Position numbers and translations under genes: made by a program | Notes under the pieces: generated by a model | What the model saw: the letters and a program-made list of their open reading frames with translations, nothing else | Told to the model about the DNA's origin: nothing | Database searches by the model: none | NCBI GenBank assembly: GCA_001430755.1 | Contig: CP013062.1 | Span: 1,050,001-1,082,000, forward strand | Length of the DNA: 32,000 nt | Origin: Candidatus Peribacter riflensis | GTDB taxonomy: Bacteria; Patescibacteriota; Gracilibacteria; Peribacterales; Peribacteraceae | Reading direction: 5' to 3' | In this document: in pieces, positions 8,567 to 32,000 of the stretch | How the letters are laid out: each line of letters starts with the position of its first letter | Position numbering within the stretch: position 1 is the first letter of the stretch

Positions 8567-8589
8567 GGAGAAGGCAGCCACGAAGCTGT

Positions 8590-8615
8590 ATACTCCATAC
8601 CAAATACTGCATACT
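8590..8615 (+). repeat. Four ATAC(T) cores phased exactly 7 bp apart, upstream of dnaE
   Basis: ATAC occurs at 8590, 8597, 8604 and 8611 (tATACTcc ATACCaa ATACTgc ATACTgg). The 12-mer ATACTGCATACT (8604-8615) recurs identically at 13177-13188. Confidence 0.6.
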
Positions 8616-8626
8616 GGTTCTCCTTC

Positions 8627-8701
8627 ATGAACACCTCTGATTTCGTCCACCCCGCACCAGTCGCTTCGCTCCGGCGCAGGGCATGCCTCCACCTCACATG
8701 A
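8627..8701 (+). other. 24-codon upstream ORF whose stop overlaps the dnaE ATG; possible degenerate duplicate of the dnaE 5' end
   Basis: ATG 8627 to TGA 8699-8701 encodes MNTSDFVHPAPVASLRRRACLHLT. The stop overlaps ATG 8698 (ATGA) of dnaE, which begins MKATDFVHLHCHS. The nucleotide sequences atgaacacctctgatttcgtccacc and atgaaagcgaccgactttgtccacc are clearly related. Confidence 0.35.
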
Positions 8702-11700
8702 AAGCGACCGACTTTGTCCACCTGCACTGCCATTCGACCTACTCCCTCCTCGAGGCACTCCCGAGCCCGGAGGAAATTGTGGAACGTGCAAAAGAGCTGG
8801 GTCAAACCGCCGTCGGCATCGCCGACAAAGGGTACGTCTACGGGCTGGTGGAGTTCTATCAGGCAGCAAAAAAGGGTGGGCTGAAGCCCATTCTGGGTCT
8901 CGAGACGTACGTGGCGGCCCGCACGCGCTTCGACCAGGAAAGCGGAACGGATACGAAGCGCTACCCACTCGTGCTCCTCGCGGAAAATGAAGAGGGGTAC
9001 TCAAACCTTCTCGCGCTCGCCACGCAGGCCGCGCTCGAGGGCATGTACTACAAGCCGCGTGTGGATGCCGAACTCCTGAGTAAATATGGCAAAGGTCTCA
9101 TTGCGCTCACCGGGCCGATCGGAGGGGCGATCCCGCAGGCCGCGCTGGTGGAGGACGGCGAGCGCATTCAGGAACTCACCGAACAGTACCGTTCGTACTT
9201 CGGCGAAAAGAACCTCTACTTCGAGTTGATGGAACTGACAGGGGTGACCGGGCAGGCCGAGGTGAATCAGCAGCTCATCAGTTGGGGAAAGAAGCTCAAT
9301 GTCCCTCTGGTGGCGACGTGCTCCAGCCACTACTGCCGCCCGCAGGATTCCGAGGCCCACGATGTGCTCCTGTGCATTCAGAAGAACGCAAACGTCGCCG
9401 ATCCAACGCGCTTTTCGATGCGTGACAGTGATTTTTCCATGCGCCCGTTTACGGAGCTGGAGTGTACATTCGCCCACGTACCCGAAGCGCTGCAGAATAC
9501 GCGCGTTATCGCCGACCGCTGCTCCGTCACTCTGGAGTTGGGAAAGTACCGCATTCCCCGTTACCCGGTGCCAAAGGACACCACCGAGGAATCCGAGCTC
9601 TCCCGTCTCGCGGGAGAAGGTTTCGCACAGAGGTACCCCAATGCCACGCAGGAACAAAAGGATCGCCTGAAGCATGAGCTTTCCGTCATCAACAGCATGG
9701 GATTCGCCGGATACTTCCTCATCGTGGCCGATTTCATCAATGAGGCGAAGCGGAGGGGGATTGCGGTGGGACCCGGGCGCGGATCGGCTGCCGGGTCCAT
9801 CGTGTCTTACAGCTTGAACATCACGACGCTTGATCCCCTGGAACACGGGCTCCTCTTCGAGCGATTTCTCAACCCCGAGCGCATCTCGATGCCGGATATC
9901 GATACGGATTTTGCCGATACGCGGAGAGATGAAGTGCTGGAATATGTCCGCGACAAGTACGGCAATGACCGGGTCGTGCAAATCTGCACGTTCGGAACGC
10001 TGGCGGCCCGGGCGGCCGTGAAAGACGTGGGCCGCGCCTACGGCGTGCCGTTTCTCGAAATGAATGCGCTGGCGAAGCTCATCCCCGAACGTCCCGGCAC
10101 GACACTCAAGGATGCCATGGAAACGACGGAATTGAAGGCGGCCTACGACAGCAACGAGACGTACCGGAAAATCATCGACACCGCGTTCAAGCTGGAGGGA
10201 AAAGCGCGCCATGTTTCGGTGCACGCCTGCGGCGTGATCATCACGCCGGAACCCACAGTGCATTTCTCCGCGCTCCAACGCGCTCCCAAAGATGAAAATA
10301 TCATCATTACACAGTACGAGGCGAAGCCACTGGAGGCGCTGGGGCTTCTGAAAATGGACTTCCTGGGACTCACGAACCTCACGGTCATCCAAACCACGCT
10401 GGAAATCATTCAGCGTCTGTACGGCACACAGTTGGATATGGCCAACCTGCCCATGAATGACAAGGCGACGTACGAGCTCCTCCAGCGCGGAGATACGACG
10501 GGCGTGTTTCAGCTGGAATCCGCCGGGATGCGGCGGTACTTAAAGCAGCTCATCCCTACGACATTCAACGACATCACCGCAATGGCGGCGCTCTTCCGCC
10601 CGGGGCCCATGGAATGGATTCCGAGTTTTATCAAGCGCAAACACGGGAAAGAACAGGTGGAATACCTCCACAAGGATGTGGAACCCATCTTCCGCGAGAC
10701 CTACGGCATCGGCGTTTACCAGGAGCAAATCCTGCAGCTCGCGCGTGTGTTCGCCGGTTATTCATTGGGAGAAGCGGATCTTCTGCGGCGTGCCATCGGA
10801 AAGAAAATCAAGAAAGAGCTCGACGCGCAGCGAGACAAGTTCATCGCGGGCGCGGCGAAGAAAGGACATGGGCAGGCGCTGGCAGAGAAGATCTTTGACG
10901 ATGTCATCCTGCCATTCGCCGGATACGGATTCCCCAAAGCGCATGCTGCCGGCTACGCGCGCATCGCGTTTGAAACCGCATACTTGAAGGCGCACTTCCC
11001 GACGGAATTCATGGCCGCGCTCCTCTCGAGTGACGCGCAGCGGACAGACCGCGTAATGATCGAAATTGAAGAATGCCGCCAGATGAGCATTCAGGTGCTC
11101 CCGCCAGATATCAATGAATCGCTCCGCCACTTCACCGCCCTCCCGCCGGAAGGAGCCACACTGGCACACGGGACGGCGCAGAAGGGATCAATCCGCTTCG
11201 GATTGAGCGCCATCAAAGGCATTGGCGACAGCTCGGTGCAGCAGCTCATCGCCGTTCGCGAAGCAGGCGGGAAATTCAAGTCCATCGAGGATTTCGCGCG
11301 GCGCGTTCCCTCGAAAGTGCTCAACAAAAAACTGCTCGAGGCGCTCGTTAAATCCGGCGCGCTCGACTCGCTCGGCGAGCGCAGAGCACTGGTGGAGCAC
11401 TATGAGCTCATCATCGATTACGCTAAATCCAGCGGGAATGTTTCCGCCGCCCAGAGTGACTTATTCGCCTCTGCCGGCACGAAGCTCGACGATGCCACCA
11501 TCGAGTTCCCGCACACTACCGAGGCCACGTCCCTGCAAAAATTACAGTGGGAAAAAGAAACGCTCGGCATGTACGTCAGCAGCCATCCCCTTGCGGGTCT
11601 CAAGAAATACATCGCCAAAAAAGCCCAGCTCATTGCAGATCTCACCGCCAAAGACGCTGGAAAGAAAATCAAGCTGGCGGGACTGGTCGAGAGCATCAAG

Positions 11701-18732: not shown

Positions 18733-20445
18733 CTATGCAGCGGGCGCCGCGGCCGGGCGTGCCTCTTCGACCAGCTTTTTGTAGAGCGCATCCATGGCAT
18801 CCCGTGCAACCATTGGCGAATGGAATACGCCCAAATTATCCACCGAGATCGCCTGATCGGGGGGCCTGCCGAGCTTCGTGAGTATGACGTTATTGATCGT
18901 ATTCACATGTGCCCACTTGTTCGCGCCCGCATCAGGATCAGCGGTGAGCTGGAAGTGGTCATTGGGCCCCATCGTCAGCTTGTTTAGGGCCGCTGCGAGG
19001 CCGTCTGTGCCGGGAATGGCCCGGAGACTTAGGAGGTCCTGAATGCTGTTGAGCTTCTGAAGGATCTCCGCCCTGCCCGTTTCAACTTCACGCTTCATCG
19101 CAGTGAGTTCCGTCACGTCTGCCTGCAGTTTGTCTCGCTCCTGAGCCAGATCGCTAATGCGCTTATCGAGATCCCGCAGCTCATTCTTCTGTAGATCCGT
19201 CGCGGTGGCGGCTGTCGCCGACGGCCGTCTCGACTCGGCAATACGCTGCAGAGCAGCGATGGAACCGGGGCCGGCGGCATCATTGAGAGCCTTCAGGCGG
19301 TCCTCCTTGCTCGTGAGCAGCTCTGATCCGGTTTTGGCGCCATCTGTCATCTCAGTGACCAGATTTCTGCGCCGTTCGGCACTGGAGGCATTCGATGCAG
19401 ATTCGGCGCCCGGCTTGCCTGCTTCGGGCGATCCTGCGGGTCCTTTCTTTTCACCTGGGTTGATCATCTCTTTCATCTTCTGAACATTCAGAAGTACGAA
19501 ACCGATCAGGCCCATGATCTTGCTGAAACCACGCTCCGCGGGCGAGCCCTCGAGCGCCTTGAGTTCAGGAGGCTTCTTAAAGATGCCATCCGGGTTGCTG
19601 GTATCGATGCCGCGCATCTGCATGCGTGCGAGCATGATGTTCTTGTCGACCTCTGATGCTTTGGTGGCGTCAAATTTTTCCAGCTCTTTCGCGGCACCAT
19701 CCACGATGTCTTTGCGCTCGTCATCCGAAAGCTCGTTGCCCGTTTCCACCATGGTCTGGCGGAGTTGATTCACAAATTTATGCTGGTCTGCCGGCAGCTC
19801 CTTCATGAATTTCTGAAAAGCCTGATCGTTGGTGAGAATGGCCTTCTTCTCTGCCGGACTCTTGGCATCAAAGTTTTCGAAGAACCCCTGCGCCGTCGCA
19901 AGCTCGGGGCTGCCCTCTGTCATACTCGCCATCAGTCTCTCCGCAGCCGCCTTTAAATCAGGATTGGAAGAGAACGCCTGATCAATCGTGGCTTTCTCGT
20001 CTTCGGTGAGCGCGCGGCCTTTTTCTTTTGTGCCAGCGGGCGCCTCTGCGCCAATGGCCAGTTTTCCGTCGGTTCCCAAGGCAAATCTGACATCGGCTGG
20101 TGCGAATGCCTCATTCACCACCTTGAGGGGCTCGGGGGTCGCTACATTCACAAGTTCCTGATGGTAGGTATTCGCTGCGTTCACGAGTGCCGTTCGGTAC
20201 CGCTCCTGCAATTGTGCGCTGTCCTCCGCGGCCCGCTGTACCTGAAAATCCGCCAGCTCCTCGGCTGCGTCGGGGTTCCCATCTTTCACCTTGTCGATTT
20301 GCTCCTGAATCTTCTTCTGCTCGGGGGTTAATTCCGCCGAAGGCGGCGCGCCAGCCGCACTTTCGCCGGGCGCGGCAGCCGGAGCGCCATCAACAAAAAT
20401 CAGTCTCTGCTCCTTCTCTGCTCTGCATTGTGGATGAAACAGCAT
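18733..20445 (-). CDS. Hypothetical acidic, helix-rich protein (570 aa)
   Basis: This long ORF starts 5 nt after the stop of the upstream 116-aa gene. It has no signal peptide. One short hydrophobic stretch is present (FSKIMGLIGFVLLNV), and the C-terminal half looks like coiled coil (LRDLDKRISDLAQERDKLQADVTELTAMKREVE). No family recognised. Confidence 0.65.
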   Translation of the reverse strand: MLFHPQCRAEKEQRLIFVDGAPAAAPGESAAGAPPSAELTPEQKKIQEQIDKVKDGNPDAAEELADFQVQRAAEDSAQLQERYRTALVNAANTYHQELVNVATPEPLKVVNEAFAPADVRFALGTDGKLAIGAEAPAGTKEKGRALTEDEKATIDQAFSSNPDLKAAAERLMASMTEGSPELATAQGFFENFDAKSPAEKKAILTNDQAFQKFMKELPADQHKFVNQLRQTMVETGNELSDDERKDIVDGAAKELEKFDATKASEVDKNIMLARMQMRGIDTSNPDGIFKKPPELKALEGSPAERGFSKIMGLIGFVLLNVQKMKEMINPGEKKGPAGSPEAGKPGAESASNASSAERRRNLVTEMTDGAKTGSELLTSKEDRLKALNDAAGPGSIAALQRIAESRRPSATAATATDLQKNELRDLDKRISDLAQERDKLQADVTELTAMKREVETGRAEILQKLNSIQDLLSLRAIPGTDGLAAALNKLTMGPNDHFQLTADPDAGANKWAHVNTINNVILTKLGRPPDQAISVDNLGVFHSPMVARDAMDALYKKLVEEARPAAAPAA

Positions 20446-20450
20446 GGGAA

Positions 20451-20801
20451 TTAGGGGGTGCTGAACGAAGATTCGATGGAGCGCATTTTCTGCTGGTCAT
20501 TTTGGGAGGCCTTGTCCTCCACAAAATGAATGGCTCCGAGCTTGAATGAGCGCACCTGGGCCTCCTGCTCCTGCATGTGCCGGGCATAGCGCCTCTCATA
20601 TTCCTCCATGGCCTTGGCATACCGCTCTCCGCGCGCCTTCTTCTGTTCGGGCGTCTCATCTTTGTACTTTTCTTTCGCCAAAGGGATCTGATCTGTGGTG
20701 AGTTCCGGCTCAATCTCCTGCATGATTTTGTTATAAATCTCCGCACCGGACTGCGCGACAGGAACCACGGGAACGCCTGCGGAAGACTGGGGGTTGGACA
20801 T
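20451..20801 (-). CDS. Hypothetical small charged protein (116 aa)
   Basis: The ORF lies downstream of a near-consensus sigma70-type promoter and is tightly linked to the 570-aa gene. No family recognised. Confidence 0.6.
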   Translation of the reverse strand: MSNPQSSAGVPVVPVAQSGAEIYNKIMQEIEPELTTDQIPLAKEKYKDETPEQKKARGERYAKAMEEYERRYARHMQEQEAQVRSFKLGAIHFVEDKASQNDQQKMRSIESSFSTP

Positions 20802-20830
20802 GGATATTGTTGTGGCTTCTTTTCTTTGTA

Positions 20831-20859
20831 ATTATACCAAATTTCACAGAAATCTTCAA
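20831..20859 (-). promoter_or_regulatory. Sigma70-type promoter: -35 TTGAAG, 17-nt spacer, extended -10 TGGTATAAT
   Basis: The minus strand reads TTGAAG atttctgtgaaatttgg TATAAT. It lies between the mfd stop (20876) and ATG 20801. Confidence 0.6.
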
Positions 20860-20875
20860 CCTTCTGCGAAATGGC

Positions 20876-23800
20876 CTACTTCTTCTCTTTTGACTTGCCG
20901 CCGAGCATTTCCACCTCCTTTGTGAGTTCCAGAAGCCACTGCGACTCCTCGGCCCCCGCTCTCCTGGTCAGCTCCGCGAACGGCAGGTGCAGATTACTGC
21001 CCGAGATCTTCCACTGCGGATTCTCTTTGAGCAGCTGCATGATCTCTTTGGCCGTCACGCGGCCCGCCAGCGTGAGGACGATGAAATCTTCCCGCGCCTC
21101 ATGTTCCATTTTGATGCGGATGACCCCTGCATGACGACACGCGAGTTTGAGCCGGAGAATAGCGAATAAATTTTTCACAGGAGTCGGCGGCTCACCGAAT
21201 TCGTCACGCAGGTCTTCTTCGAATTCCTTCAGAATGGAGGCATCCTCACTGCCGGCAAGCTTCTGGTACACCGAAATGCGTTCCTGTTCGTCGGTGACGT
21301 AGAAGGAGGGAAGCATCGCCTCCACGGGAAGCAGGATCTCGGCCGAGATCTCCTCTTCCACCTCGCCCTTCTCGCCGGCCTTCATTTCCTCCACGGCCCC
21401 TTTGAGCATGCGCAGGTAGTGGCTGACACCCACGGTGTTCATGGTGCCGGATTGGCTGGCCCCCAGAATCTCGCCGGCTCCGCGGATCTCGAGATCGCGC
21501 ATGGCCACCTGGAATCCGCTACCGAGCTCACAGGCCTCCACAATTGCCCTCAGGCGCTTCTTCGCATCGTCTTGCAGCTTCTGCCCGTGATAGAGGAAAT
21601 AGGCGTACGCCTGCACCTTGCTGCGCCCCACACGACCTCTGAGCTGGTAGAGCTGGGCAAGCCCGAAATGTTCCGCCTCATCCACCACAAGAGTATTGGC
21701 GCGCGGAAGGTCGATGCCATTCTCGATGATGGTGGAACTCACGAGCACATCCACGTTGCCCTTCTTGAATTCCAGCACGCGCTCTTCGAGCTCGTCCGCT
21801 TTCAGCTGCCCGTGCGCCACAATGAACTTCGCCTCAGGAATCAGCATACGGAGCTTGTCGGCAAAAGCATCGATCGTCTCTACACGATTGTGGAGGATGA
21901 AGGCCTGCCCCTTCCGCTTTAATTCGAAGATGATCGCATGCCGGATGAGCGAATCGGAATAGCGCCGGACCTCGGTGATGATCGGCAGCCTGCCCGGGGG
22001 TGGCGTGGTGATGGTGGTGATGTCGCGAAGCTTGTGCAGCCCCAGATTCAGCGTGCGCGGGATGGGGGTGGCCGTGAGGGTGAGAATATCCACCGAGGCG
22101 CGCATCTCTTTGAACTTCTCTTTCTGCTTCACGCCGAAACGCTGTTCCTCATCCACAATCACGAGCCCCAGATTATGAAAGTGCACGTCCTCCTGCAGCA
22201 GCCGGTGCGTGCCGATGACGAGATCCACTTCCCCCTTCTTCAGTCTTTCGAGTGTTTCACGCTGTTCCTTGGCCGAGCGGAACCGGCTGAGCATTTCGAT
22301 GCGCACATTGAACGGTGCCATGCGCTCGCGGAAGTTGTGGTAGTGCTGATCGGCCAGAATGGTGATCGGCGCGACCACGGCCACCTGCTTGCCACTCTGC
22401 ACGGCCTTGAACGCGGCCCGCATGGCCACTTCGGTCTTGCCGAATCCCACGTCTCCGCAGATGAGGCGATCCATGGGGTGCCCGCTCTCCATATCCGTTT
22501 TCAGGTCTTCGATGGCCTTGCGCTGGCCCGGCGTTTCTTCGTACGGGAACGACTCCTCAAACTTGCGCTGGATATCGGTATCCTCGCCAAAGCCGTATCC
22601 TTTGGCCTTGGCACGCTTGGCGTAGAGCAACAGAAGTTCTTTGGCGATCAGTTCGGTTTCCTCCTTCGTCTTCTTCATCACGCGTTTCCACTCATTGGTT
22701 CCGAGACGCGTGAGAATGGGCTCCTGCCCCTCTTCGTAGACGAATTTACTGAGCTTGTCGGCCTGATCCACCGGCACGAAGAGCTTGTCGCCCTCGGCAT
22801 ACGTCAGTTCCAGATATTCGCGCAGCGTTCCATCCACTTCTTTCTGCGTCATCCCTTCGAAGTGCCCGATGCCGTGCTCCATGTGCACGACGTAATCACC
22901 GGGAACGAGCGAGGTGATAAAATCGAGGGCCAATTTCTGAATGCTGCGCTGCTTGCCCGCCTTTCTCAGTGAGAAAATTTCACGATCGGTGAGCAGAGCG
23001 AATTTCAAATCGGGATTCTGAAGGGAGTGGGGGAGCAGTTCGTCTTCTCCGGCACCGATGAGGGTAAGAGTGCCCGGAGTACGCTCCAGATCCGTCGAAC
23101 AGGACACATGCTCCTCTTTGCAAATACCCTTAAGCTCCTCGATGCGCTTGGTGACGACGAAAATCGCCCATTTCTGCGTGAGCTTGTCTTTGACGTCATT
23201 GAGAAAATCGATGAGTGTGTAGAATTTCAGAACAGAAAGGTAGCGCAGGTGCGCGTGGTGATCGTCGGTTTCAGGAAAAGGCGTGAAGCGCAGGGCTGTC
23301 GCTGTCATGGGAAATTCCACATCATCCTGATCATCAATCACCAGAAGCGCTTTCGCGGGAATCTGGCGGACGAGAAGATCTGTTTCTTCGTAGAGCAACG
23401 GAAAGATCTGCATCTCTTTACCTCCGTCCTCCGTTTTCGAAAGATCAATGGGATCAACGGTAAGAATTTTTTCCACCCGATCCATGTCGAAGGAAACACG
23501 ATAGGGGTGGCTGGACTGGATCGGGAAGATATCGAAAACATCGCCAATGCGCCGGTATTCACCGGGAGAAAGATACAGATCCTCCCCATGCTGGTATCCG
23601 CGTTCGATCAGATCCTCCACGAATTTCGTAAAATTGATTTCTTTGCCGAGCGTGAGCGTAAGCATGCGATCCAGGAGCTCGGCGAAGCGCGGAAACGACT
23701 GATCCCACGTTTCACGCGAGCAGAGGAAAATCCCATTCTTCGATTCCTCCCCCTGCGTGAACTGCAGGAATGTTTGCAGAGCATCTGGCAATACTTCCCC

Positions 23801-24055
23801 CTCCTCATTTTCAATGGGATGGAGAATGTGCGTCGTCTGCCCGAAGAATTGCAGCCAGTGCTGCAGGGCCTCCGCTTCTTCCTCCCGCCCGGTGACCAGG
23901 AGCGTGCGCTGGGAATTCTGCTCGAGGAGAAGAGAGAGAAGAAGGGCTTTTGCGGTCTCATTGCTGGCCCCGGAGATCACAAGACGCCGCTCCTTCTTCA
24001 GAAGCTCGGTCAGTTCCCGGTGAGTGTCTCTCCCAAGGAGGAGAGAAGGTTGCAT
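20876..24055 (-). CDS. mfd: Transcription-repair coupling factor
   Basis: The 1059-aa product has a superfamily-2 helicase core (Walker A CGDVGFGKTEVAMRAAF, DEEQRFG) and a CarD/RNAP-interacting region (GDYVVHMEHGIGHFEG). The TRG-type region and C-terminal domain are also present. Confidence 0.95.
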   Translation of the reverse strand: MQPSLLLGRDTHRELTELLKKERRLVISGASNETAKALLLSLLLEQNSQRTLLVTGREEEAEALQHWLQFFGQTTHILHPIENEEGEVLPDALQTFLQFTQGEESKNGIFLCSRETWDQSFPRFAELLDRMLTLTLGKEINFTKFVEDLIERGYQHGEDLYLSPGEYRRIGDVFDIFPIQSSHPYRVSFDMDRVEKILTVDPIDLSKTEDGGKEMQIFPLLYEETDLLVRQIPAKALLVIDDQDDVEFPMTATALRFTPFPETDDHHAHLRYLSVLKFYTLIDFLNDVKDKLTQKWAIFVVTKRIEELKGICKEEHVSCSTDLERTPGTLTLIGAGEDELLPHSLQNPDLKFALLTDREIFSLRKAGKQRSIQKLALDFITSLVPGDYVVHMEHGIGHFEGMTQKEVDGTLREYLELTYAEGDKLFVPVDQADKLSKFVYEEGQEPILTRLGTNEWKRVMKKTKEETELIAKELLLLYAKRAKAKGYGFGEDTDIQRKFEESFPYEETPGQRKAIEDLKTDMESGHPMDRLICGDVGFGKTEVAMRAAFKAVQSGKQVAVVAPITILADQHYHNFRERMAPFNVRIEMLSRFRSAKEQRETLERLKKGEVDLVIGTHRLLQEDVHFHNLGLVIVDEEQRFGVKQKEKFKEMRASVDILTLTATPIPRTLNLGLHKLRDITTITTPPPGRLPIITEVRRYSDSLIRHAIIFELKRKGQAFILHNRVETIDAFADKLRMLIPEAKFIVAHGQLKADELEERVLEFKKGNVDVLVSSTIIENGIDLPRANTLVVDEAEHFGLAQLYQLRGRVGRSKVQAYAYFLYHGQKLQDDAKKRLRAIVEACELGSGFQVAMRDLEIRGAGEILGASQSGTMNTVGVSHYLRMLKGAVEEMKAGEKGEVEEEISAEILLPVEAMLPSFYVTDEQERISVYQKLAGSEDASILKEFEEDLRDEFGEPPTPVKNLFAILRLKLACRHAGVIRIKMEHEAREDFIVLTLAGRVTAKEIMQLLKENPQWKISGSNLHLPFAELTRRAGAEESQWLLELTKEVEMLGGKSKEKK

Positions 24056-24241
24056 GTGCGAAAGAGTTGTGCCCGAGATTCGACTCCCCTCACAAAAAAT
24101 GAGGAGAGGAAATTACCTTCGAGAGACCGCTTCTGCGCCCCGGGCGTTGATGCCACCAGTATAGAAGAAACTGGTGGAAAAGCAAGGATATGAAGAAAGC
24201 TCCGAAAATGTCATGGTGAGCTCTGACGAACCATCGCATTC

Positions 24242-24285
24242 ACGAATTTATCGCACTTCGACAGGGCTCAGTGTGACAAATTCGT
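24242..24285 (-). other. 16-bp imperfect inverted repeat (12-nt loop) just downstream of dnaN
   Basis: ACGAATTTATCGCACT tcgacagggctc AGTGTGACAAATTCGT has 14 Watson-Crick pairs, 1 wobble and 1 mismatch. No U-tract follows. Further hairpins lie at 24153-24177 (CCACCAGT/ACTGGTGG, perfect 8 bp) and 24084-24108. Confidence 0.6.
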
Positions 24286-24312
24286 CGTTGAGAAGTTCTT
24301 GAAATAAGGAGT

Positions 24313-25494
24313 TTATTCCTCCTGAAGTCTGAGCGGCATGATCAGGTGCAGGAAGAGGGGGTTACTGGGGAACCGGAAGACGGCCGGGTGCATGCTGTCG
24401 GTCAGTGTGAGCTCCACCTCGCCCTCACTGTCTGCATGCCCCAGGAAATCGAGCAGGTAGCTGGAGCTTAAGGCGATCTTGTTTGGGTCGCCTTTGATTT
24501 TGGCTGAGAAGGTCGCCTCATCCCTGCCTGCCTGCGTCTGTGGCGTCTTCACATGCACCGCATCCTTCGAGAAGGAGAAGGTGAGGTTGTTGTTAATCTC
24601 TTTCGCGAAATAATGCATGCGTTTCACAATCGGCGTGAGCTCCCGCACAGAAAGTTGAATGGTGGTCTTCTGCTCCTTCGGGATAATTTGCTTGTAGTCA
24701 GGGAATCGCCCGTCAATGAGACGTGAGAGGAGGCGGGTGGGCCCGACGTGCAGCTCAATCTGCTGATTGCTCAGTGCCACCTCGATGGGCTGGAGTGTTG
24801 GTTCGGGCTTCTCTTTCTTCTCTTTGTCCTTTCCCTCCTCTTTCGCTCCTTCTGTGCGCTCGGGCTTGCGGGAACCGAGAATGGATCTCAGTTCCTCCAG
24901 TACCTTTGTGGGGACAATGCAGGAGATGTCGATGGTGGCTGCTTTTGTGGGGATCTTGTACTCCGACAGACGATAGCTGTCGGTTGCGACAAAAGTGAGA
25001 TGGCCCTTTTCTGCGTGCAGATACACCCCCGAGAGAACGGGGCGGAGAGATGTTTTGGTGGAAGCGAAGGTCACGCGCTGAAGGGCCTCGAGTACTGGGG
25101 CCGCATCGAGGGTGAAGGTGGTCTGCTTCTCGATGGGGGTAATGGTGGGATATTCCGAGGCTGCCTCTCCGGCAATGAGGGTTTTGGCATGTTTGGAAGT
25201 GCACTTCAGTTGCGTTCCTTCGCTGGTTTCCAGGAGGACCTCATTGTCAGAATTGTATTGGGCAAAATTGAGAATGGCTTTGGAGGGAATGGTAATTGAT
25301 CCCTCATTCTCAATAGAAGCCTCAAAACTGGTCACAATACTCAACTCCAAATCTGTTGCACTCACCTTGCAGCGTTTTCCTTCTGCCTCGAGAAGGATAT
25401 TCCCTAAAATCGGAAGCGCCTGCTGCCCACTGATGGCCCGACTCACAAGTGTGAGTGACTGAAGGAGATCGGATGTTTTACACAGGAGTTTCAT
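24313..25494 (-). CDS. dnaN: DNA polymerase III beta subunit (sliding clamp)
   Basis: MKLLCKTSDLLQSLTLVSRAISGQQALPILGNILLEA is a typical beta-clamp N-terminus, and the three-domain length fits. The C-terminus is MPLRL. At 393 aa it includes a Lys/Glu-rich insert of about 25 aa. Confidence 0.93.
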   Translation of the reverse strand: MKLLCKTSDLLQSLTLVSRAISGQQALPILGNILLEAEGKRCKVSATDLELSIVTSFEASIENEGSITIPSKAILNFAQYNSDNEVLLETSEGTQLKCTSKHAKTLIAGEAASEYPTITPIEKQTTFTLDAAPVLEALQRVTFASTKTSLRPVLSGVYLHAEKGHLTFVATDSYRLSEYKIPTKAATIDISCIVPTKVLEELRSILGSRKPERTEGAKEEGKDKEKKEKPEPTLQPIEVALSNQQIELHVGPTRLLSRLIDGRFPDYKQIIPKEQKTTIQLSVRELTPIVKRMHYFAKEINNNLTFSFSKDAVHVKTPQTQAGRDEATFSAKIKGDPNKIALSSSYLLDFLGHADSEGEVELTLTDSMHPAVFRFPSNPLFLHLIMPLRLQEE

Positions 25495-25677
25495 AAGGTG
25501 GTTCCCAATAGTAAATAATTAAAAGAAGTATTCTTATAATTCGTCGTAATCATAGACCCTCTACTAAAGTTCATCTTTATCATTGTAGTCTGTGGAAAGT
25601 GAGAGCAATAGTTTCATTTTTTCTTTTTCTTAAGGCCATCTCTATTTTTTGGGCCTCTCTGTGGGTTGTGGAGGAGG

Positions 25678-25686
25678 TGTGGATAA
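25678..25686 (-). promoter_or_regulatory. Perfect DnaA box TTATCCACA
   Basis: The + strand reads TGTGGATAA. The box is embedded in the 14-mer GGTGTGGATAACTT (25676-25689), which recurs at 25823-25836. Confidence 0.7.
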
Positions 25687-25824
25687 CTTGTGGAGAAGTG
25701 GAAGAGTAGATGAGTGGGAAGCCAAACGCTATGTTTATGGCTTTATGGAGCGGAAATACCAAAGTTTACGTGCAGAACACCTGCCTACCTAAGAGGAACC
25801 CATCCACAGGGCTTTCCACAGGGG

Positions 25825-25833
25825 TGTGGATAA
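25825..25833 (-). promoter_or_regulatory. Perfect DnaA box TTATCCACA
   Basis: The + strand reads TGTGGATAA. This is the second copy of the identical 14-mer, 147 bp from the first. Confidence 0.7.
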
Positions 25834-25886
25834 CTTTTGTGTGCAAGATGGCGGGCTTTCCCTCCAGAATTTCTTAAAAAAAGCTC

Positions 25887-27185
25887 TTAAATCTTTTTGC
25901 GAAAGGTTTCCCGCTTGTGGGCCGGGGGAACCACCTCTCTATTTTCGCGGATGGTCATCTCCCCTCCTTTCATCGAGACATAACTCCATTCCGGAATGTC
26001 TTTGTCGACTCTCCCGCCGCTCGAGATAAACGTCCCCTTGCCAATCTTGATTCCCGGGTTGATTACGGTGTGAATACCGAGCCTGCAGTCATCCCCGATG
26101 ATGCACCCGAACTTTTGGAGCCCGGTTGGGATTTTTTCCTCCCCGACCACTGAGGAGATTTCTCCTTCATCCAGGCGCAGGTTGCCCGTCAGGCTCCCAC
26201 CCCCGAAGGAAACATTGGAGCCGATCACACTGTCGCCGATGTAGGTCATGTGTGTCCACACGTGTGAAGCCAATATGGAGGATTTGATTTCCGTGGAGTA
26301 TCCCACCACACAATCCTCTCCAATACTCGCTCCACGGACGAGCGCGTTATTGGCCACGATACTGCGTGCACCGATGATGCATGGGCCGACGATGGCAGCA
26401 TGCGCAAACACGCGTACGCCTTCCTCAATGACCACATTCCCCTCGATCACGGCAGTGGGATGGATCTGTGCCCTCGGGTGAATCAACGGTTTGGTAATTT
26501 TAGAGAGGAGGAACGAGAGGAGTGGGAGCAGATGCCAGGGGTACTTCACGGGGAGCCAGGGACCTTCGTACGGCACGGCGTGGTACGTTTTCGTTTTGAA
26601 GAGAGCGGCGAGCGCCTGTTCGTATCCGTCATCACGTGTGGGTTTTGTTCTTTCCAGTTCGGTGAGGAGCTCCGCAGGATTGTTATGAACATGCGCCACG
26701 ATCGTGACGAGATCGCTCGGTTCCTTCCCTGCCCCCGGCTTTTCCACAATGGAGGAGATGCGTTCTCCCTGCAGCTGCAGATATCCTCCCGGAAAGTACG
26801 TGGGCATCCGTTTGGCGAGCAGGGCTCCGTCCGTCCCTTCCTTCTGTGCTTCTTCCACAAGTGCTTTATAGGCCTGCGGCTCCACAACATCGTTCCCTCC
26901 CACAATCATCACAGGTTCCTTGATCGAGGGGAGGGCGCTTAAGAGAGCCCCGCGCATGCCGAACGAAAGATCCTCCTGCTCAATCACATGTAAATCCGGA
27001 CAGAGTGATTTCGCCTGTTCCACATTGTGGCTGCCGCCCACTACCGTAATTTCGGATATTCCCGCGGCACGCAAATTCTCCACTTGGATTTCGAGGAGTG
27101 TCTTCCCACAGAGGGGGAAGAGAGATTTCTCGGTAAGCGGCCAGAAACGCTTGCTCTGTCCTGCGAGGAGGAGAAGGGCTTTCAC
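25887..27185 (-). CDS. Bifunctional-type sugar-1-phosphate nucleotidyltransferase with C-terminal left-handed beta-helix acyltransferase domain (GlmU-like)
   Basis: A GTG start gives (M)KALLLLAGQSKRFWPLT, a nucleotidyltransferase G-loop variant. The C-terminal half is full of hexapeptide repeats (IEGNVVIEEGVRVFAHAAIVGPCIIGARSIVANNALV..., IGDSVIGSNVSFGGGS). The substrate cannot be assigned by eye. Confidence 0.8.
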   Translation of the reverse strand: MKALLLLAGQSKRFWPLTEKSLFPLCGKTLLEIQVENLRAAGISEITVVGGSHNVEQAKSLCPDLHVIEQEDLSFGMRGALLSALPSIKEPVMIVGGNDVVEPQAYKALVEEAQKEGTDGALLAKRMPTYFPGGYLQLQGERISSIVEKPGAGKEPSDLVTIVAHVHNNPAELLTELERTKPTRDDGYEQALAALFKTKTYHAVPYEGPWLPVKYPWHLLPLLSFLLSKITKPLIHPRAQIHPTAVIEGNVVIEEGVRVFAHAAIVGPCIIGARSIVANNALVRGASIGEDCVVGYSTEIKSSILASHVWTHMTYIGDSVIGSNVSFGGGSLTGNLRLDEGEISSVVGEEKIPTGLQKFGCIIGDDCRLGIHTVINPGIKIGKGTFISSGGRVDKDIPEWSYVSMKGGEMTIRENREVVPPAHKRETFRKKI

Positions 27186-27232
27186 GGGCCTATCGTACGC
27201 TTCGATGGCTTCTGTGGGCCAGTTCTTCCCCG

Positions 27233-28069
27233 CTAAAAAATGAGGACAATATCCCCTTCTTCGGCGGTGGTACGCACCGGGATTCCGGCTGTAGTGAGGC
27301 GTTGCAGTGTTTCCGGATTCGGGTGGCCGTAGTGGTTGTCCTTTCCCACCGAAATCACAGCGAGTCGTGGCGAGACGGCAGTGAGGAATGCGTCCGAAGA
27401 ACTGAAGCGGCTGCCGTGATGCCCGACTTTCAGTACCTGTGCCGACACATCAACGCCGGTGGCGAGCAGCGTCGCCTCCCCCTGCACGCCCAGGTCCCCG
27501 GTGAAGAGAACAGAGCCTGTTCCGAACGATGCGCGCAGGACGATGGAGGCGTCGTTATCGCCGATGAGGGGGGCAGGGTGCGGGGGCCAGAGGATATCGA
27601 GCACAACGCCATCGTTGAGGTCGATATCCCGTTCCGGGTTCGCAGCGACGAGCGGGATTCCCTGCTCCTGTGCGATCGCGAGCAGCACCTGAAACGGCTC
27701 TTCATTATTCCGGATCGCAGGGAGCAGGAGCGCGCCCACTTTGAACCGCCGGAGAATTTCTGGGAACGCAGTGAAATGGTCAGGGTCGGGATGTGAGAGA
27801 ATGAGCAGATCGATGGATTTTTTTGAAAGCGGCAATGCCTTGCCGAGTGCCTCGAGTGCGGAGAGATCGGGCCCTCCGTCGATCAGGATCGTTTTCCCCG
27901 AAGGGCTCACCATGAGTGCGCTGTCTCCCTGGCCAACATCGAAGAACTGCACTGTCAGGTGGCCGACAGGAAGCCGCCGGATTTCCCGGATCAGCACGAG
28001 TGAAGTCACTGCCAGGACCATGCAGATTGCCAGCAGGGCACGTCGATGATGGAGAGGCGTGGTCCGCAT
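27233..28069 (-). CDS. Membrane-anchored metallo-beta-lactamase-fold hydrolase, ComEC C-terminal-domain type
   Basis: An N-terminal TM segment (ALLAICMVLAVTSLVLI) is followed by FFDVGQGDSALM, the metal motif LILSHPDPDH and KVGHHGSRFSS. These match the MBL domain of ComEC/Rec2. The ComEC channel domain is absent (278 aa total). Confidence 0.8.
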   Translation of the reverse strand: MRTTPLHHRRALLAICMVLAVTSLVLIREIRRLPVGHLTVQFFDVGQGDSALMVSPSGKTILIDGGPDLSALEALGKALPLSKKSIDLLILSHPDPDHFTAFPEILRRFKVGALLLPAIRNNEEPFQVLLAIAQEQGIPLVAANPERDIDLNDGVVLDILWPPHPAPLIGDNDASIVLRASFGTGSVLFTGDLGVQGEATLLATGVDVSAQVLKVGHHGSRFSSSDAFLTAVSPRLAVISVGKDNHYGHPNPETLQRLTTAGIPVRTTAEEGDIVLIF

Positions 28070-28116
28070 TGGACCGGCTACTCTACCGCGTGCGTCCGCC
28101 AGAGGCTATGAAGTGC

Positions 28117-29487
28117 TCAGCGGGCTTTGCGGGTCTTCTTCCAGCCCAGGAATGCGCCCAGAGCGGCAAGACCTGCTATGGCGCCCGCTCCGGTCTGTGA
28201 GAGACTCTTGGCTTTGGGGGTGGGTGGGGCGGTCACCGTTGATGCGGGCGCAGAAGACTGTGCGCTTGCGGGCGGCGTGACCGTAGCCGTGGGGGGAGGC
28301 GCAACCTGAGGAGTATTCCATCCGAAGATCGAACGGAAAACACCAGGGGAGGAACGCCCCTCTGCATCGGCAACGTAGACAACGATTCCGAAATTCTGAG
28401 GAGTCACATTGGGGATCTTCACGCCATCGAGGTCCCCCGGCAGGAACTCCGGCACAGAGAAAGTCCGGCCTCCGTCGCGGCTCTGCCGGACGACGATGAA
28501 TGCTCCTTCGGGCGTGCTCGGGTCATACTCCCACTGTCCGATCACCGTGAAGAGCTGACTATTCTGCGGGCTTGCCTGCAGGCGGAAATTGAGAACATCA
28601 GGCAGTTGCCCCGGCTGCTGTGGCAGAGAGGTGGCCGGTGCAGTCACTTCCTGCGGCGGCATCTGGGCGGCCTGTTCCACGGCGCGTGCCGCGCCCTCCT
28701 GGGGGGTGAGGCCGGTCGAGTGCCCCGTGAAGAATGCGGTGCGATCAAGACGGTCCAGCGGGATCATGCCTTCGCCAGCCAGCGGCTCATTTAAGCGGAT
28801 CTGGTAGACCGCGCCCGCAACCTGTCGCACCGTCTGCACCGAGACGTTTTTCCCCTCAATCGTGAGCTGTTCAATGGCGAGAGGTGCCCCTGCAGCATCA
28901 ACGATGGAGAACGCAGAGGGGGCCAGAGAGGGCTCGATGATCGGCGTGGCCGAAAACCCCAGACCCACGCGCGTGGCAGAGAGCGCCTGTGCCGACAGCA
29001 GGTGGAGCGTGTTGCCCGACGGTTCCTGGGCGGAGGGAGGAATCTGTTGCTGGGGCACGGATGAAACCGGAGCGGGTTCCGGCAGAGAGGCGGGAGGCTC
29101 GTTCATGGGTTGGCCCATTGATCGTTGCACTTGTACCTCTTCGATGAAGTACTGGCTCTCTTCCCCCTGCGCATTCACTGCCATGACACTCACGAAGATC
29201 GTGGTGAGCGAAGACGGGACGGAACGCAGCACGTACTCACTCACCGGCCCTTCCGTCGTTTCAACATCATCGTAGTATCCGTCATTTTCCAGAATGGATT
29301 TCTGACTGAAATACACCCGGTACGCAGAGACCTCTCCACCCACCGGCGTCCACCGCACCTGAATGGTGCCATCTTCCTGCGCTTCGGCGTTCAGGCCCGT
29401 CACGCTCTGAGGCGCTTCTGCCAAAGCAGAAAACGGCAGGCTCAGTACGCTCACGACAGCAAGGGCGAAGAGGGAACGACGCATCAT
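28117..29487 (-). CDS. Secreted surface protein with fibronectin type III-like domain and a C-terminal LSQTG + hydrophobic + basic tail anchor
   Basis: The signal peptide is MMRRSLFALAVVSVLSLPFSALA/EA. VTGLNAEAQEDGTIQVRWTPVGGEVSAYRVYFS looks like FN3. The C-terminus is SLSQTGAGAIAGLAALGAFLGWKKTRKAR. Confidence 0.75.
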   Translation of the reverse strand: MMRRSLFALAVVSVLSLPFSALAEAPQSVTGLNAEAQEDGTIQVRWTPVGGEVSAYRVYFSQKSILENDGYYDDVETTEGPVSEYVLRSVPSSLTTIFVSVMAVNAQGEESQYFIEEVQVQRSMGQPMNEPPASLPEPAPVSSVPQQQIPPSAQEPSGNTLHLLSAQALSATRVGLGFSATPIIEPSLAPSAFSIVDAAGAPLAIEQLTIEGKNVSVQTVRQVAGAVYQIRLNEPLAGEGMIPLDRLDRTAFFTGHSTGLTPQEGAARAVEQAAQMPPQEVTAPATSLPQQPGQLPDVLNFRLQASPQNSQLFTVIGQWEYDPSTPEGAFIVVRQSRDGGRTFSVPEFLPGDLDGVKIPNVTPQNFGIVVYVADAEGRSSPGVFRSIFGWNTPQVAPPPTATVTPPASAQSSAPASTVTAPPTPKAKSLSQTGAGAIAGLAALGAFLGWKKTRKAR

Positions 29488-29522
29488 AGGGAAGAGGGGT
29501 GTTTGTCTTTCTGAATATTATA

Positions 29523-31022
29523 TCAGATCTCGCTCTTCCCGCCAAGCCCGAGCGCACGGCGGTGTAGAGCCCCAAGCAGCCCTGCGAGGCCAGTGATCCA
29601 CAGCAGGATTCCCAGTACGGCACCTGCAGCGACGAGGCCGAAGGCCGTGAGAAAATCATTGGCGAGGAACGGGCGTGTGATCCAAAGCCCTACGGCGAGC
29701 AGGAGTGAAAATACGAACCAGCGCACGAAGGCTGTGGGCGGGAACTTCGGCTGGGAGTACCGAAGGGTTGCGGGCAGCAACAGGGCGACGAGCAGGGACT
29801 GAACGATGATGGCCGTCGTAGCCGCTCCGACGAAACCCAACTGCGGAATGAGGATCAAATTGCTCCCGATCGAGAGAGCGGCACCGGTGACGAGTGTGAT
29901 CATGAGGCGCTTCCATTCTCCGTGCACCAGTGCCATGTAGAACGAAAAGAGGATGAAGCCGTACAGGAACATGGGAACGCTGGCGAGCCTGAGAGCCGTA
30001 TCCGCCCCCGGGTGCGCTGCCGTGGAAAGATAATCGCGCGTGGTGAGCATGGCGACGAGGGGGCGCGGCCAGAGGGCCGCGAATAATCCAGCTGTCGTTC
30101 CGAGCAGGAGGAGAACCAGAAAAGTCTTGCCCAGCAGGTCGCTCGTGTTTTCTCCCCGCTCGCGCCGCTCACTCACGACCGGGAGGATGGAGTTCAGCAG
30201 GAACGTGGGGATGAGAAATCCCATCTCTCCCATCCGGAGGACGAAACCGTAGTAGGCATTCTGAATCTGAAAATCAGGACGGAGGAGTGCGATCATCGTC
30301 ATATCGAACTGGCGGCAGAGCGCAAGGAGCAGGTACGCGGTCCCAAAGGGGAGTGCGCTCTGGAGCAGATACCGCATGGTTGGCCAATGCCAGCGGGCTG
30401 CGAAAGTCACAAATCTTCGTGCGTAGATATACGAGAGGATGAGCAGCAGGAGCGCGCCGATGCCGCCAATGAGCGTGCAGAAGTAGAAGAGGTTCACATT
30501 GTCGCTTCCCCGTGCCCCCAGAAAGACGACCATGCCCAACATGGCGGTGGTCAGCAGGCGCTGGCTGACCTCGGCGATGAAGACGTAATTCAGGCGGTAG
30601 TGAATCTGGAAGACGGAGCGCAATGTGCCGGCGAGCAGGGTGAAGAACGGCGTGAAGGCGGCGAGTGTGATGCCGAGAGGCAGAGGGGTGCCGTGCCAGC
30701 TCGGCAGAATCCATGCGAGCAGGATGGCCGAACCAAGCGAGAGCGTCAGGATGATTGAGCGCAGGAAGATGAGGGCGCTCAGTACTTCTTCTTTCCGGTC
30801 CGAGCGGCTCATCTCGCGCACTGAAACTGCGTAGAGACCGAAATCTGCGAGAATGCCGAAGACCTGCAGGTATCCGTAGGAGGAGTTGTAGTATCCGGCC
30901 ATTTCAAGGCTTAAGGCCGTCGCAACGAATTTAATGCCCAGAATCGACAGTGCAGCCATGGTGATCTGGCTGGCCAGTTGCCACAGTGTGGATGCGACGA
31001 TCTTTTTTCCGGCAGAAGGCAT
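29523..31022 (-). CDS. Polysaccharide/oligosaccharide flippase, MOP superfamily (Wzx/MurJ-like)
   Basis: The product is a multi-pass membrane protein throughout. I chose the ATG at 31022 (MPSAGKKIVASTLWQLASQI...). The track start at 31136 would overlap the divergent pyrB start at 31116, and a TACAAT box lies 8 nt upstream of 31022. An alternative ATG is at 31082. Confidence 0.75.
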   Translation of the reverse strand: MPSAGKKIVASTLWQLASQITMAALSILGIKFVATALSLEMAGYYNSSYGYLQVFGILADFGLYAVSVREMSRSDRKEEVLSALIFLRSIILTLSLGSAILLAWILPSWHGTPLPLGITLAAFTPFFTLLAGTLRSVFQIHYRLNYVFIAEVSQRLLTTAMLGMVVFLGARGSDNVNLFYFCTLIGGIGALLLLILSYIYARRFVTFAARWHWPTMRYLLQSALPFGTAYLLLALCRQFDMTMIALLRPDFQIQNAYYGFVLRMGEMGFLIPTFLLNSILPVVSERRERGENTSDLLGKTFLVLLLLGTTAGLFAALWPRPLVAMLTTRDYLSTAAHPGADTALRLASVPMFLYGFILFSFYMALVHGEWKRLMITLVTGAALSIGSNLILIPQLGFVGAATTAIIVQSLLVALLLPATLRYSQPKFPPTAFVRWFVFSLLLAVGLWITRPFLANDFLTAFGLVAAGAVLGILLWITGLAGLLGALHRRALGLGGKSEI

Positions 31023-31030
31023 CGCAGCCG

Positions 31031-31036
31031 ATTGTA
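31031..31036 (-). promoter_or_regulatory. Candidate -10 TACAAT giving a leaderless flippase mRNA
   Basis: The minus strand reads TACAAT cggctgcg ATG, an 8-nt spacer to the start codon at 31022. Confidence 0.4.
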
Positions 31037-31115
31037 CGCGAAGAAAACGGGCCTGTCCCCCTCTCTGTCGCGGTGTAGACATCGCCCTGCCGCCGTCATA
31101 CGCTACTACCACCTT

Positions 31116-32000
31116 ATGCCGCTCCCCTTCCGCCACCTCACCTCAACGAAGCAGTTCTCGCGCAGTGATACAGATGCAGTACTCCAGGTGGCGGAGAAGA
31201 TGGAAAAGGTGCTCGCGAAGGGCGGGAGTGATCTGCTCGCGGGCAAGATTCTCGCTGCGCTCTTCTACGAGCCCAGCACCCGCACGCGCCTGAGTTTTGA
31301 AACGGCCATGCAGCGGCTGGGCGGCAACGTCATCACGGCCGACGGACTCCAATTCAGTTCGATGTACAAGGGCGAGACGGTGGAAGATACGATGATGGTG
31401 GTGGGGCAGTACGCCGATCTCATTGTCATGCGGCATCCCGAACAGGGCAGTGCCGATCGCGCCGCGTCGGTCTCGCCGGTGCCGTTCATCAATGCGGGAG
31501 ACGGGCCAGGGCAACACCCCACACAGGCGCTGCTCGACCTCTATACCATCCAGAAGGAGCGCGGCACGCTCGACGGCATTCACATCGCCATGGTCGGTGA
31601 TCTCAAATTCGGCCGCACGGTGCACTCCCTTTCCTTCCTGCTGGGTCTCTACCGCGATATCCGTTTCACACTCATCGCGCCCAAAGAGCTCGTCATGCCG
31701 CCGAAGGTGACGAGCTTTCTCAAAGAGAAGGGCATTTTCTATACCGAAACAGAAAATATGGAACAGGGGCTGGATGCCGATGTGCTCTACATGACGCGCG
31801 TACAGAAAGAGCGATTCGAGAAACCCGAGGAGTACGAGCGGCTTAAATTGAAATACATCCTGCGGCCCGAACAGGTGAGCGGTCGTTCCGTCACCGTGCT
31901 CCATCCGCTTCCGCGTGTCGGGGAAATCACTCCCGATGTCGATGCCCTCCCCAATGCCGCCTACTTCCGGCAGGTCCGTAACGGCGTAGTGGTCCGGATG
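31116..32000 (+). CDS. pyrB: Aspartate carbamoyltransferase catalytic subunit, 3' end beyond window
   Basis: This gene is not listed in the ORF track. The open frame from ATG 31116 translates to MPLPFRHLTSTKQFSRSD...LLAGKILAALFYEPSTRTRLSFETAMQRLGG...VMRHP...DGPGQHPTQALLD...HPLPRVGEITPDVD...AYFRQVRNGVVVRM. These include the ATCase signatures STRTR and HPLPR. The frame is still open at nt 32000. Confidence 0.93.
   Translation, partial: MPLPFRHLTSTKQFSRSDTDAVLQVAEKMEKVLAKGGSDLLAGKILAALFYEPSTRTRLSFETAMQRLGGNVITADGLQFSSMYKGETVEDTMMVVGQYADLIVMRHPEQGSADRAASVSPVPFINAGDGPGQHPTQALLDLYTIQKERGTLDGIHIAMVGDLKFGRTVHSLSFLLGLYRDIRFTLIAPKELVMPPKVTSFLKEKGIFYTETENMEQGLDADVLYMTRVQKERFEKPEEYERLKLKYILRPEQVSGRSVTVLHPLPRVGEITPDVDALPNAAYFRQVRNGVVVRM

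Follow-up and report, generated by a model that had tools for sequence, protein, structure and literature searches.

The DNA analysed here (the window) was a stretch of 32,000 nucleotides, which corresponds to genome positions 1,050,001–1,082,000 of the uncultured groundwater bacterium Candidatus Peribacter riflensis. The genome is a single contig of 1,248,026 bp with a G+C content of 58.5%. For the five complete genomes of this organism, an average of 1,248,071 bp and 58.5% GC is given in the passages of the genome paper considered here (Anantharaman et al., 2016, PeerJ, PMC4736985). Inside the window, dnaN and a gene encoding a GlmU-like enzyme are separated by an intergenic spacer, which occupies positions 1,075,495–1,075,886 in genome coordinates. 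The coordinates of these elements in the window are as follows:

24313–25494, − strand: dnaN (DNA polymerase III beta clamp), immediately downstream of the proposed origin; all three Pfam beta-clamp domains
25495–25886, no strand: whole intergenic spacer, proposed oriC; 392 bp, 59% A+T versus about 41.5% A+T in the genome
25887–27185, − strand: GlmU-like bifunctional sugar-1-phosphate nucleotidylyltransferase/acetyltransferase, upstream neighbour of the spacer; Pfam NTP_transferase and Hexapep

The dnaN product gave 243.7 bits against TIGR00663 (cut-off 137.65). The best NCBIfam match of the GlmU-like gene was TIGR03992 (archaeal-type GlmU), with a score under its cut-off. The domain matches and the coordinates of both genes agree with the initial annotation of this DNA, in which dnaN was preceded by a GlmU-like gene on the same strand. 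No dnaA gene was found inside the 32-kb window.

Two minor observations were made on these genes. The Pfam match of the central beta-clamp domain of DnaN was limited to residues 132–208 (profile positions 5–82 of 116), which is consistent with an insertion in the protein after approximately residue 208. In addition, the whole spacer is enclosed by a perfectly complementary 11-nt inverted repeat with arms at 25496–25506 and 25926–25936, the first abutting the dnaN start codon and the second lying within the 3′ end of the GlmU-like gene. About 0.04 pairs of this kind would be expected by chance in the stretch containing the spacer.

DnaA boxes in the spacer

Seven DnaA boxes with at most two mismatches, two of them perfect, were identified within 243 bp of the spacer:

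25591–25599, − strand: DnaA box CTTTCCACA inside the AT-rich region; two mismatches, about −100 from dnaN, column conservation 0.83
25667–25697, − strand: head-to-tail array of three DnaA boxes, TTCTCCACA, TTATCCACA (perfect) and TCCTCCACA; column conservation 0.81, 0.90 and 0.69, respectively
25667, − strand: degenerate box, member of the three-box array; two mismatches
25689, − strand: degenerate box, member of the three-box array; one mismatch
25800–25808, + strand: weak box-like 9-mer CCATCCACA; two mismatches, column conservation 0.25, not conserved
25812–25820, + strand: inverted DnaA box CTTTCCACA, facing the distal perfect box; two mismatches, column conservation 0.69
25825–25833, − strand: distal perfect DnaA box TTATCCACA; −339 from the dnaN ATG, aligned columns 73% conserved (59 sequences)

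Both perfect boxes (25678–25686, in the array, and the distal one) are on the − strand and belong to a direct repeat, whose 17-nt copies are 94% identical and start 147 bp apart, the 14-mer GGTGTGGATAACTT being identical between them. The remaining boxes, exactly five with one or two mismatches, are distributed on both strands. The initial annotation had described the two perfect boxes inside identical 14-mers, together with at least five degenerate boxes in both orientations. As the boxes, the repeat and the genes were all found where that annotation had placed them, its observation stands.

The distal perfect box is a probable high-affinity anchor, and the 9-mer at 25800 is possibly without function. 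The boxes of the array are separated by gaps of 2 bp and it has, therefore, a period of 11 bp. All three are oriented to the AT-rich tract and dnaN, and by column conservation the array is the best-conserved part of the spacer.

The frequency of DnaA boxes in the window and in the whole genome was also determined. The window contains 8 boxes with at most one mismatch versus 2.97 expected, and none of 100 shuffles reached 8. Among the 376 intergenic regions that measure 100 bp or more in the 1.25-Mb genome, the spacer ranked first, with seven boxes of at most two mismatches and three of at most one. The clustering is thus non-random, as had been proposed. Perfect boxes are limited to five in the genome: two in the spacer, two near dnaA and one at 768 kb. 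The box form of this lineage, T[TC]NTCCACA, has 125 matches genome-wide and its top cluster is the spacer (4 in 170 bp). Outside the spacer, the genome-wide scan never gave more than 2 matches per 400 bp. Another box cluster, at 508.5 kb, tied with the spacer in the count of boxes with at most one mismatch, but it is inside an 11.6-kb coding frame and was no longer a cluster when scored with the lineage box form; it was consequently discarded.

AT-rich DNA and the putative dnaN leader

The part of the spacer between the array and dnaN comprises the following elements:

25495–25590, no strand: second AT-rich tract, 70% A+T, up to the dnaN start codon; 68% A+T in relatives
25538–25553, − strand: conserved 16-nt motif ATGATTACGACGAATT; column conservation 0.74 in 59 Peribacteria sequences
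25600–25666, no strand: first AT-rich tract, candidate DNA unwinding element, directly downstream of the array; poorly conserved

When the 40-mers of the 32-kb window were ranked by nearest-neighbour stability, the least stable was located at 25502–25541 and the fourth least stable at 25607–25646. Both results support the earlier proposal that the AT-rich tract beside the boxes is a candidate unwinding element. Given the polarity of the array into this AT-rich DNA, opening would be expected in either 25600–25666 or 25495–25590. In relatives, the first tract retains 62% A+T but not its sequence.

The second tract presumably carries the dnaN promoter and leader. The 16-nt motif, placed about 45–60 nt before the dnaN start, is conserved about as much as the DnaA boxes and may be a promoter element or a binding site; to our knowledge, it matches no known motif. 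Both this motif and the box at −100 may belong to the dnaN promoter. A scan of the dnaN strand with the promoter consensus gave nothing above shuffles.

The presence of DnaA-trios was studied following the rule for the basal unwinding system (BUS) described in PMC8287927, by searching for at least three trios (3′-NAN-5′) at no more than 16 bp from a DnaA box and on the strand given by the polarity of the box. The test depends on this strand assignment, which follows the E. coli and B. subtilis sequences. Neither the array nor the −100 box of the window is followed by such a run. Among relatives, a run was present in 18 of 59 sequences versus 35% in shuffled sequence, which means no enrichment.

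Conservation of the locus in Peribacteria

The relatives compared are named in public records as Candidatus Peribacter, Peribacteraceae, Peribacteria or Peregrinibacteria. The order GlmU-like gene, spacer, dnaN and mfd is kept in approximately 58 Peribacteria genomes, down to about 55% DnaN identity, and in none of them is dnaA within 3 kb. The dnaA gene of relatives was found on another contig or at 519–591 kb from dnaN, and at 4 kb in one genome of the same class. The spacers of the 58 relatives are 335–971 bp long, with a G+C content of 29–52%, AT-rich and box-bearing.

The distances of the boxes from the dnaN start recur at about −340 (accompanied at 14 bp by an inverted partner), −280, −203/−192/−181 (the array) and −100. 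Most relatives have a box with no or one mismatch at about −340 to −320, most have the inverted partner of this distal box, and TTTTCCACA is likewise present at −95 to −102 in most of them. The median distance between the array and the dnaN start is 202 bp in 58 genomes, and A+T richness climbs toward dnaN. When 59 sequences were aligned, identity to the window was 70% in the columns of its seven boxes versus 43% elsewhere in the spacer; the value of the box columns was not equalled in any of 5000 random placements.

A short palindrome with the consensus GGCTTCATGAAGCC was also seen in many relatives at about −250 from dnaN, with the distal boxes on one side and the tandem array on the other. 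Its copy in the window (approximately 25725–25760) is degenerate.

We considered that this conservation could be due to a structured RNA or a dnaN leader instead of to protein-binding DNA sites, since the spacer is partly conserved and lies upstream of dnaN on the transcribed strand. However, it matched no Rfam family, the sole hit having an E value of 0.61 and being far under the gathering score, and its predicted fold was no better than those of shuffles (z = +0.38). Moreover, the columns that are conserved correspond to the 9-mers of the DnaA boxes, in both orientations. On the Rfam and folding results this explanation was rejected, and we give it practically no credence.

Strand asymmetry and probable position of origin and terminus

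The minimum of the raw cumulative GC skew of the circular genome is at 1,063,258, with the curve being nearly flat at 1,065–1,075 kb. As local coding effects can move the raw minimum, two further estimates were made. In the first, skew in 1-kb bins was fitted with the coding strand as covariate. For GC skew, the best origin was at 1,073–1,074 kb (approximate 95% interval 1,057–1,074 kb), and for AT skew at 1,069 kb. In the second, the 60 most strand-skewed 8-mers were chosen at more than 100 kb from either switch, so that the tested zone was held out, and their cumulative orientation turned at 1,077,662. The four asymmetry estimates bracket the spacer, from 12 kb to its left (the raw GC-skew minimum) to 2 kb to its right. 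The resolution by skew alone is about ±10 kb because the skew is shallow for some 100 kb around the origin. In the zone of 1,050–1,085 kb, the spacer is the sole intergenic region with more than two weak boxes. The initial annotation had contemplated that the skew switch might map elsewhere, for example next to a distant dnaA; it maps to the spacer locus and away from dnaA. A repeat family presumed to be polarised by replication was also considered as a further marker of the origin, but BLAST gave no additional copies of the element and this approach was abandoned.

At the opposite side, the cumulative GC skew peaks at 492,463, and the skew fit placed the terminus at about 492 kb. The terminus is also marked independently of skew. 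The single tyrosine-recombinase (xer) gene of the genome is located at 489,456–490,382, and 36 bp upstream of it, at 490,418–490,445 and 2 kb from the skew maximum, there is a perfect 11-6-11 palindrome whose core is dif-like. With the origin in the spacer and this dif-like site at 490.4 kb, the replichores measure 585 and 663 kb (47 and 53%).

Passages of the genome paper report that the origin and terminus of Ca. Peribacter riflensis were placed by GC skew and were not apparent from gene predictions, and that short repeats and DnaA-box-like sequences are found near the origin (PMC4736985). These passages give the region without coordinates, and it is likely the spacer described here.

Gene orientation was the caveat raised in the initial annotation. 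The genes at 25887–31904 are indeed on the − strand, head-on to the fork moving right of the spacer, and the + strand block ends at about 16.8 kb. The head-on genes are real, but they do not weigh against an origin at this position. Despite clear GC and AT skew, replication-linked gene-strand bias is absent from the genome, with 49% of 1036 crude gene calls co-oriented, and head-on genes are uninformative because of this lack of bias.

The dnaA locus

In most bacteria, the origin is next to dnaA. The single dnaA gene of Ca. Peribacter riflensis is at 616,245–617,705 on the − strand. It is separated from the spacer by 459 kb and from dif by about 127 kb, in accordance with the earlier statement that the dnaA-dnaN pairing is broken and that dnaA should lie elsewhere. 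Its product has domains I, III and IV (DnaA_N, Bac_DnaA and Bac_DnaA_C) and gave 460 bits with TIGR00362 (cut-off 343.9). As judged from these matches, the genome encodes a complete and functional-looking DnaA initiator.

The dnaA frame overlaps the end of a gene for an M50/RseP-type membrane protease, and the pair spans 616,245–618,908 (6245–8908 of the stretch L003). Upstream of rseP-dnaA there is a spacer of 110 bp with an inverted pair of DnaA boxes and no AT-rich tract; this pair looks like an autoregulatory operator rather than an origin. The rseP-dnaA gene pair was present in 16 of the 16 Peribacteraceae loci examined, with inverted boxes in most of them, and rseP-dnaA with inverted boxes recurs in most genera of the family searched.

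An origin beside dnaA (about 617–619 kb), with the cluster at dnaN being secondary, was also weighed. Of the five perfect boxes in the genome, two (at 618,838 and 621,133) are near dnaA, and the inverted pair ahead of rseP-dnaA is conserved in the family. Nevertheless, the site lies mid-way in a uniformly skewed replichore and is separated from both dif and the skew maximum by only about 127 kb; replication from it would divide the genome into arms of about 127 kb and 1,121 kb. Furthermore, the rseP-dnaA spacer offers just two boxes, and the second perfect box is 2.3 kb further, within a long open reading frame (L003 9823–11349) with no Pfam match. We therefore rejected an origin next to dnaA on the grounds of skew, of unbalanced replichores and of a spacer that is not AT-rich, and we regard it as highly improbable.

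The spacer as probable chromosomal origin

All the above indicates that the spacer is very probably the single chromosomal oriC of Candidatus Peribacter riflensis. This reading is based on a box cluster beside DNA of low duplex stability, on a skew switch that coincides with the spacer and a terminus located opposite, and on the encoded DnaA, the conservation in relatives, the polarity of the array and the literature. The initial annotation had called the locus upstream of dnaN oriC-like, and the boxes, the skew switch, the opposite terminus and the conservation all favour that proposal.

The cluster could also serve solely as a dnaN promoter under DnaA control or as a site that titrates DnaA, left from an ancestral dnaA-dnaN arrangement, with replication starting at an unrecognised site elsewhere or nearby. 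The boxes are at no more than 340 bp upstream of dnaN and the conserved −100 box would suit a promoter regulator. Operator-type pairs of DnaA boxes do exist elsewhere in the genome, such as the inverted pair upstream of rseP-dnaA, and the failure to detect a DnaA-trio module points in the same direction. Nonetheless, seven boxes and a phased array beside the least stable DNA exceed the needs of an operator, that of dnaA having two boxes in 110 bp. The rest of the intergenic regions at 1,050–1,085 kb hold at most two weak boxes, and the switch zone offers no other candidate for the origin. Boxes are coupled with strong A+T richness nowhere else in the genome, and all the skew estimates bracket the spacer. 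An exclusively regulatory or titrating cluster is, in consequence, improbable. A promoter role is not needed as an alternative to the oriC reading, and DnaA control of dnaN is likely a second role of the locus.

If the spacer is oriC, initiation could be envisaged as follows. DnaA produced from the distant rseP-dnaA operon would first occupy the two perfect boxes, whose separation of 147 bp represents about 14 helical turns. ATP-DnaA would next fill the weaker boxes, notably those of the three-box array with its 2-bp gaps, and the resulting DnaA oligomer would open the AT-rich tract that separates the array from dnaN, where two replisomes would be loaded. The forks would converge across the circle, in the vicinity of dif and the neighbouring xer gene. 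The boxes of the spacer would probably also bring the dnaN promoter under DnaA control. In this scheme we infer from characterised origins that DnaA binds, in which order it fills the sites and where exactly the DNA is unwound.

A more speculative proposal is that Peribacteria open their origin without the DnaA-trio module, which is widely conserved, and that the terminus-proximal rseP-dnaA could, in these ultra-small bacteria, link the supply of initiator to late replication or to the state of the envelope. The fixed three-box phased array, the box within the AT-rich tract and the conserved 16-nt motif would fit such a trio-free grammar, and under it the motif at 25538–25553 could bind a lineage-specific origin factor. 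We consider this proposal unlikely.

Comparison with characterised origins

In cyanobacteria, both in Cyanothece ATCC 51142 and in most of the 68 in DoriC, oriC is directly before dnaN and dnaA is not its neighbour; their preferred DnaA box is TTTTCCACA, and DnaA binding to the Cyanothece origin, which has three boxes, was shown in vitro (PMC4674748). The Peribacter locus has the same layout of an intergenic box cluster and an AT-rich stretch followed by dnaN, with dnaA not adjoining. Besides, the dominant cyanobacterial box is also the commonest central box of the array in Peribacteria relatives. In contrast to cyanobacteria, Peribacter belongs to an unrelated lineage, the candidate phyla radiation, the upstream neighbour is GlmU-like and binding is predicted from sequence. 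Seven boxes are present in the spacer, including a fixed three-box phased array, versus the three of Cyanothece.

In Bacillus subtilis, the unwinding region incC is located between dnaA and dnaN and its BUS consists of boxes 6 and 7, DnaA-trios and an AT-rich element (PMC6669920, PMC8287927). In both organisms, one or more distal boxes are followed by boxes in tandem (a pair or an array) that point to dnaN, then by AT-rich DNA and finally by dnaN. Lying about 140 bp upstream, the distal Peribacter box is reminiscent of the distal box that takes part in looping at incC. Unlike B. subtilis, the Peribacter locus has neither dnaA nor a second (incA/B) cluster, and no run following the DnaA-trio rule was detected in it.

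Several features of the Peribacter spacer are also similar to those of E. coli oriC. In the latter, the R1 box is oriented toward the DUE and dnaA is 42 kb from the origin. A 2-bp-gap spacing there guides the cooperative filling of weak sites. Arrayed low-affinity sites with such gaps in E. coli oriC were reportedly described by Rozgaja et al. in 2011. Likewise, in Peribacter dnaA is not adjacent, a perfect, putatively high-affinity box faces the candidate DUE, weaker sites have 2-bp gaps and this candidate DUE is T-rich on the strand opposite to that on which the boxes are read. On the contrary, the Peribacter spacer lacks GATC and 13-mer repeats as well as recognisable IHF or Fis sites, its flanking genes differ, and the distance from dnaA to the origin is not 42 kb but 459 kb, with dnaA being terminus-proximal.

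Taken as a whole, the finding is correct, well supported and known in kind, as dnaN-adjacent origins with a distant dnaA had already been described. The genome paper had, in the passages considered here, pointed to the same neighbourhood, and the general understanding of bacterial origins is unchanged. Those passages of PMC4736985 do not mention that the origin adjoins dnaN, how its boxes are arranged, that the locus is conserved class-wide, or that dnaA lies in an rseP-dnaA operon near the terminus; the dif site is likewise absent from them. What is newly added is the anatomy of the spacer, its conservation in the examined Peribacteria, the absence of a detectable trio module, the terminus-proximal rseP-dnaA and the dif-like site. 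The origin of a complete reference genome of the candidate phyla radiation is thereby narrowed, very probably, to a 392-bp spacer whose layout is common to the Peribacteria examined. This should be useful for metagenomic growth-rate (peak-to-trough) estimates, for assembly checking and for reading strand-polar repeats.

Finally, the coding sequence flanking the proposed origin (20429–27084 in the window) was found to be enriched in DnaA-box-like 9-mers, with 10 of the 125 T[TC]NTCCACA matches in about 7 kb, and the clusters of this box form ranking second to fourth in the genome are all at no more than 5 kb from the origin.
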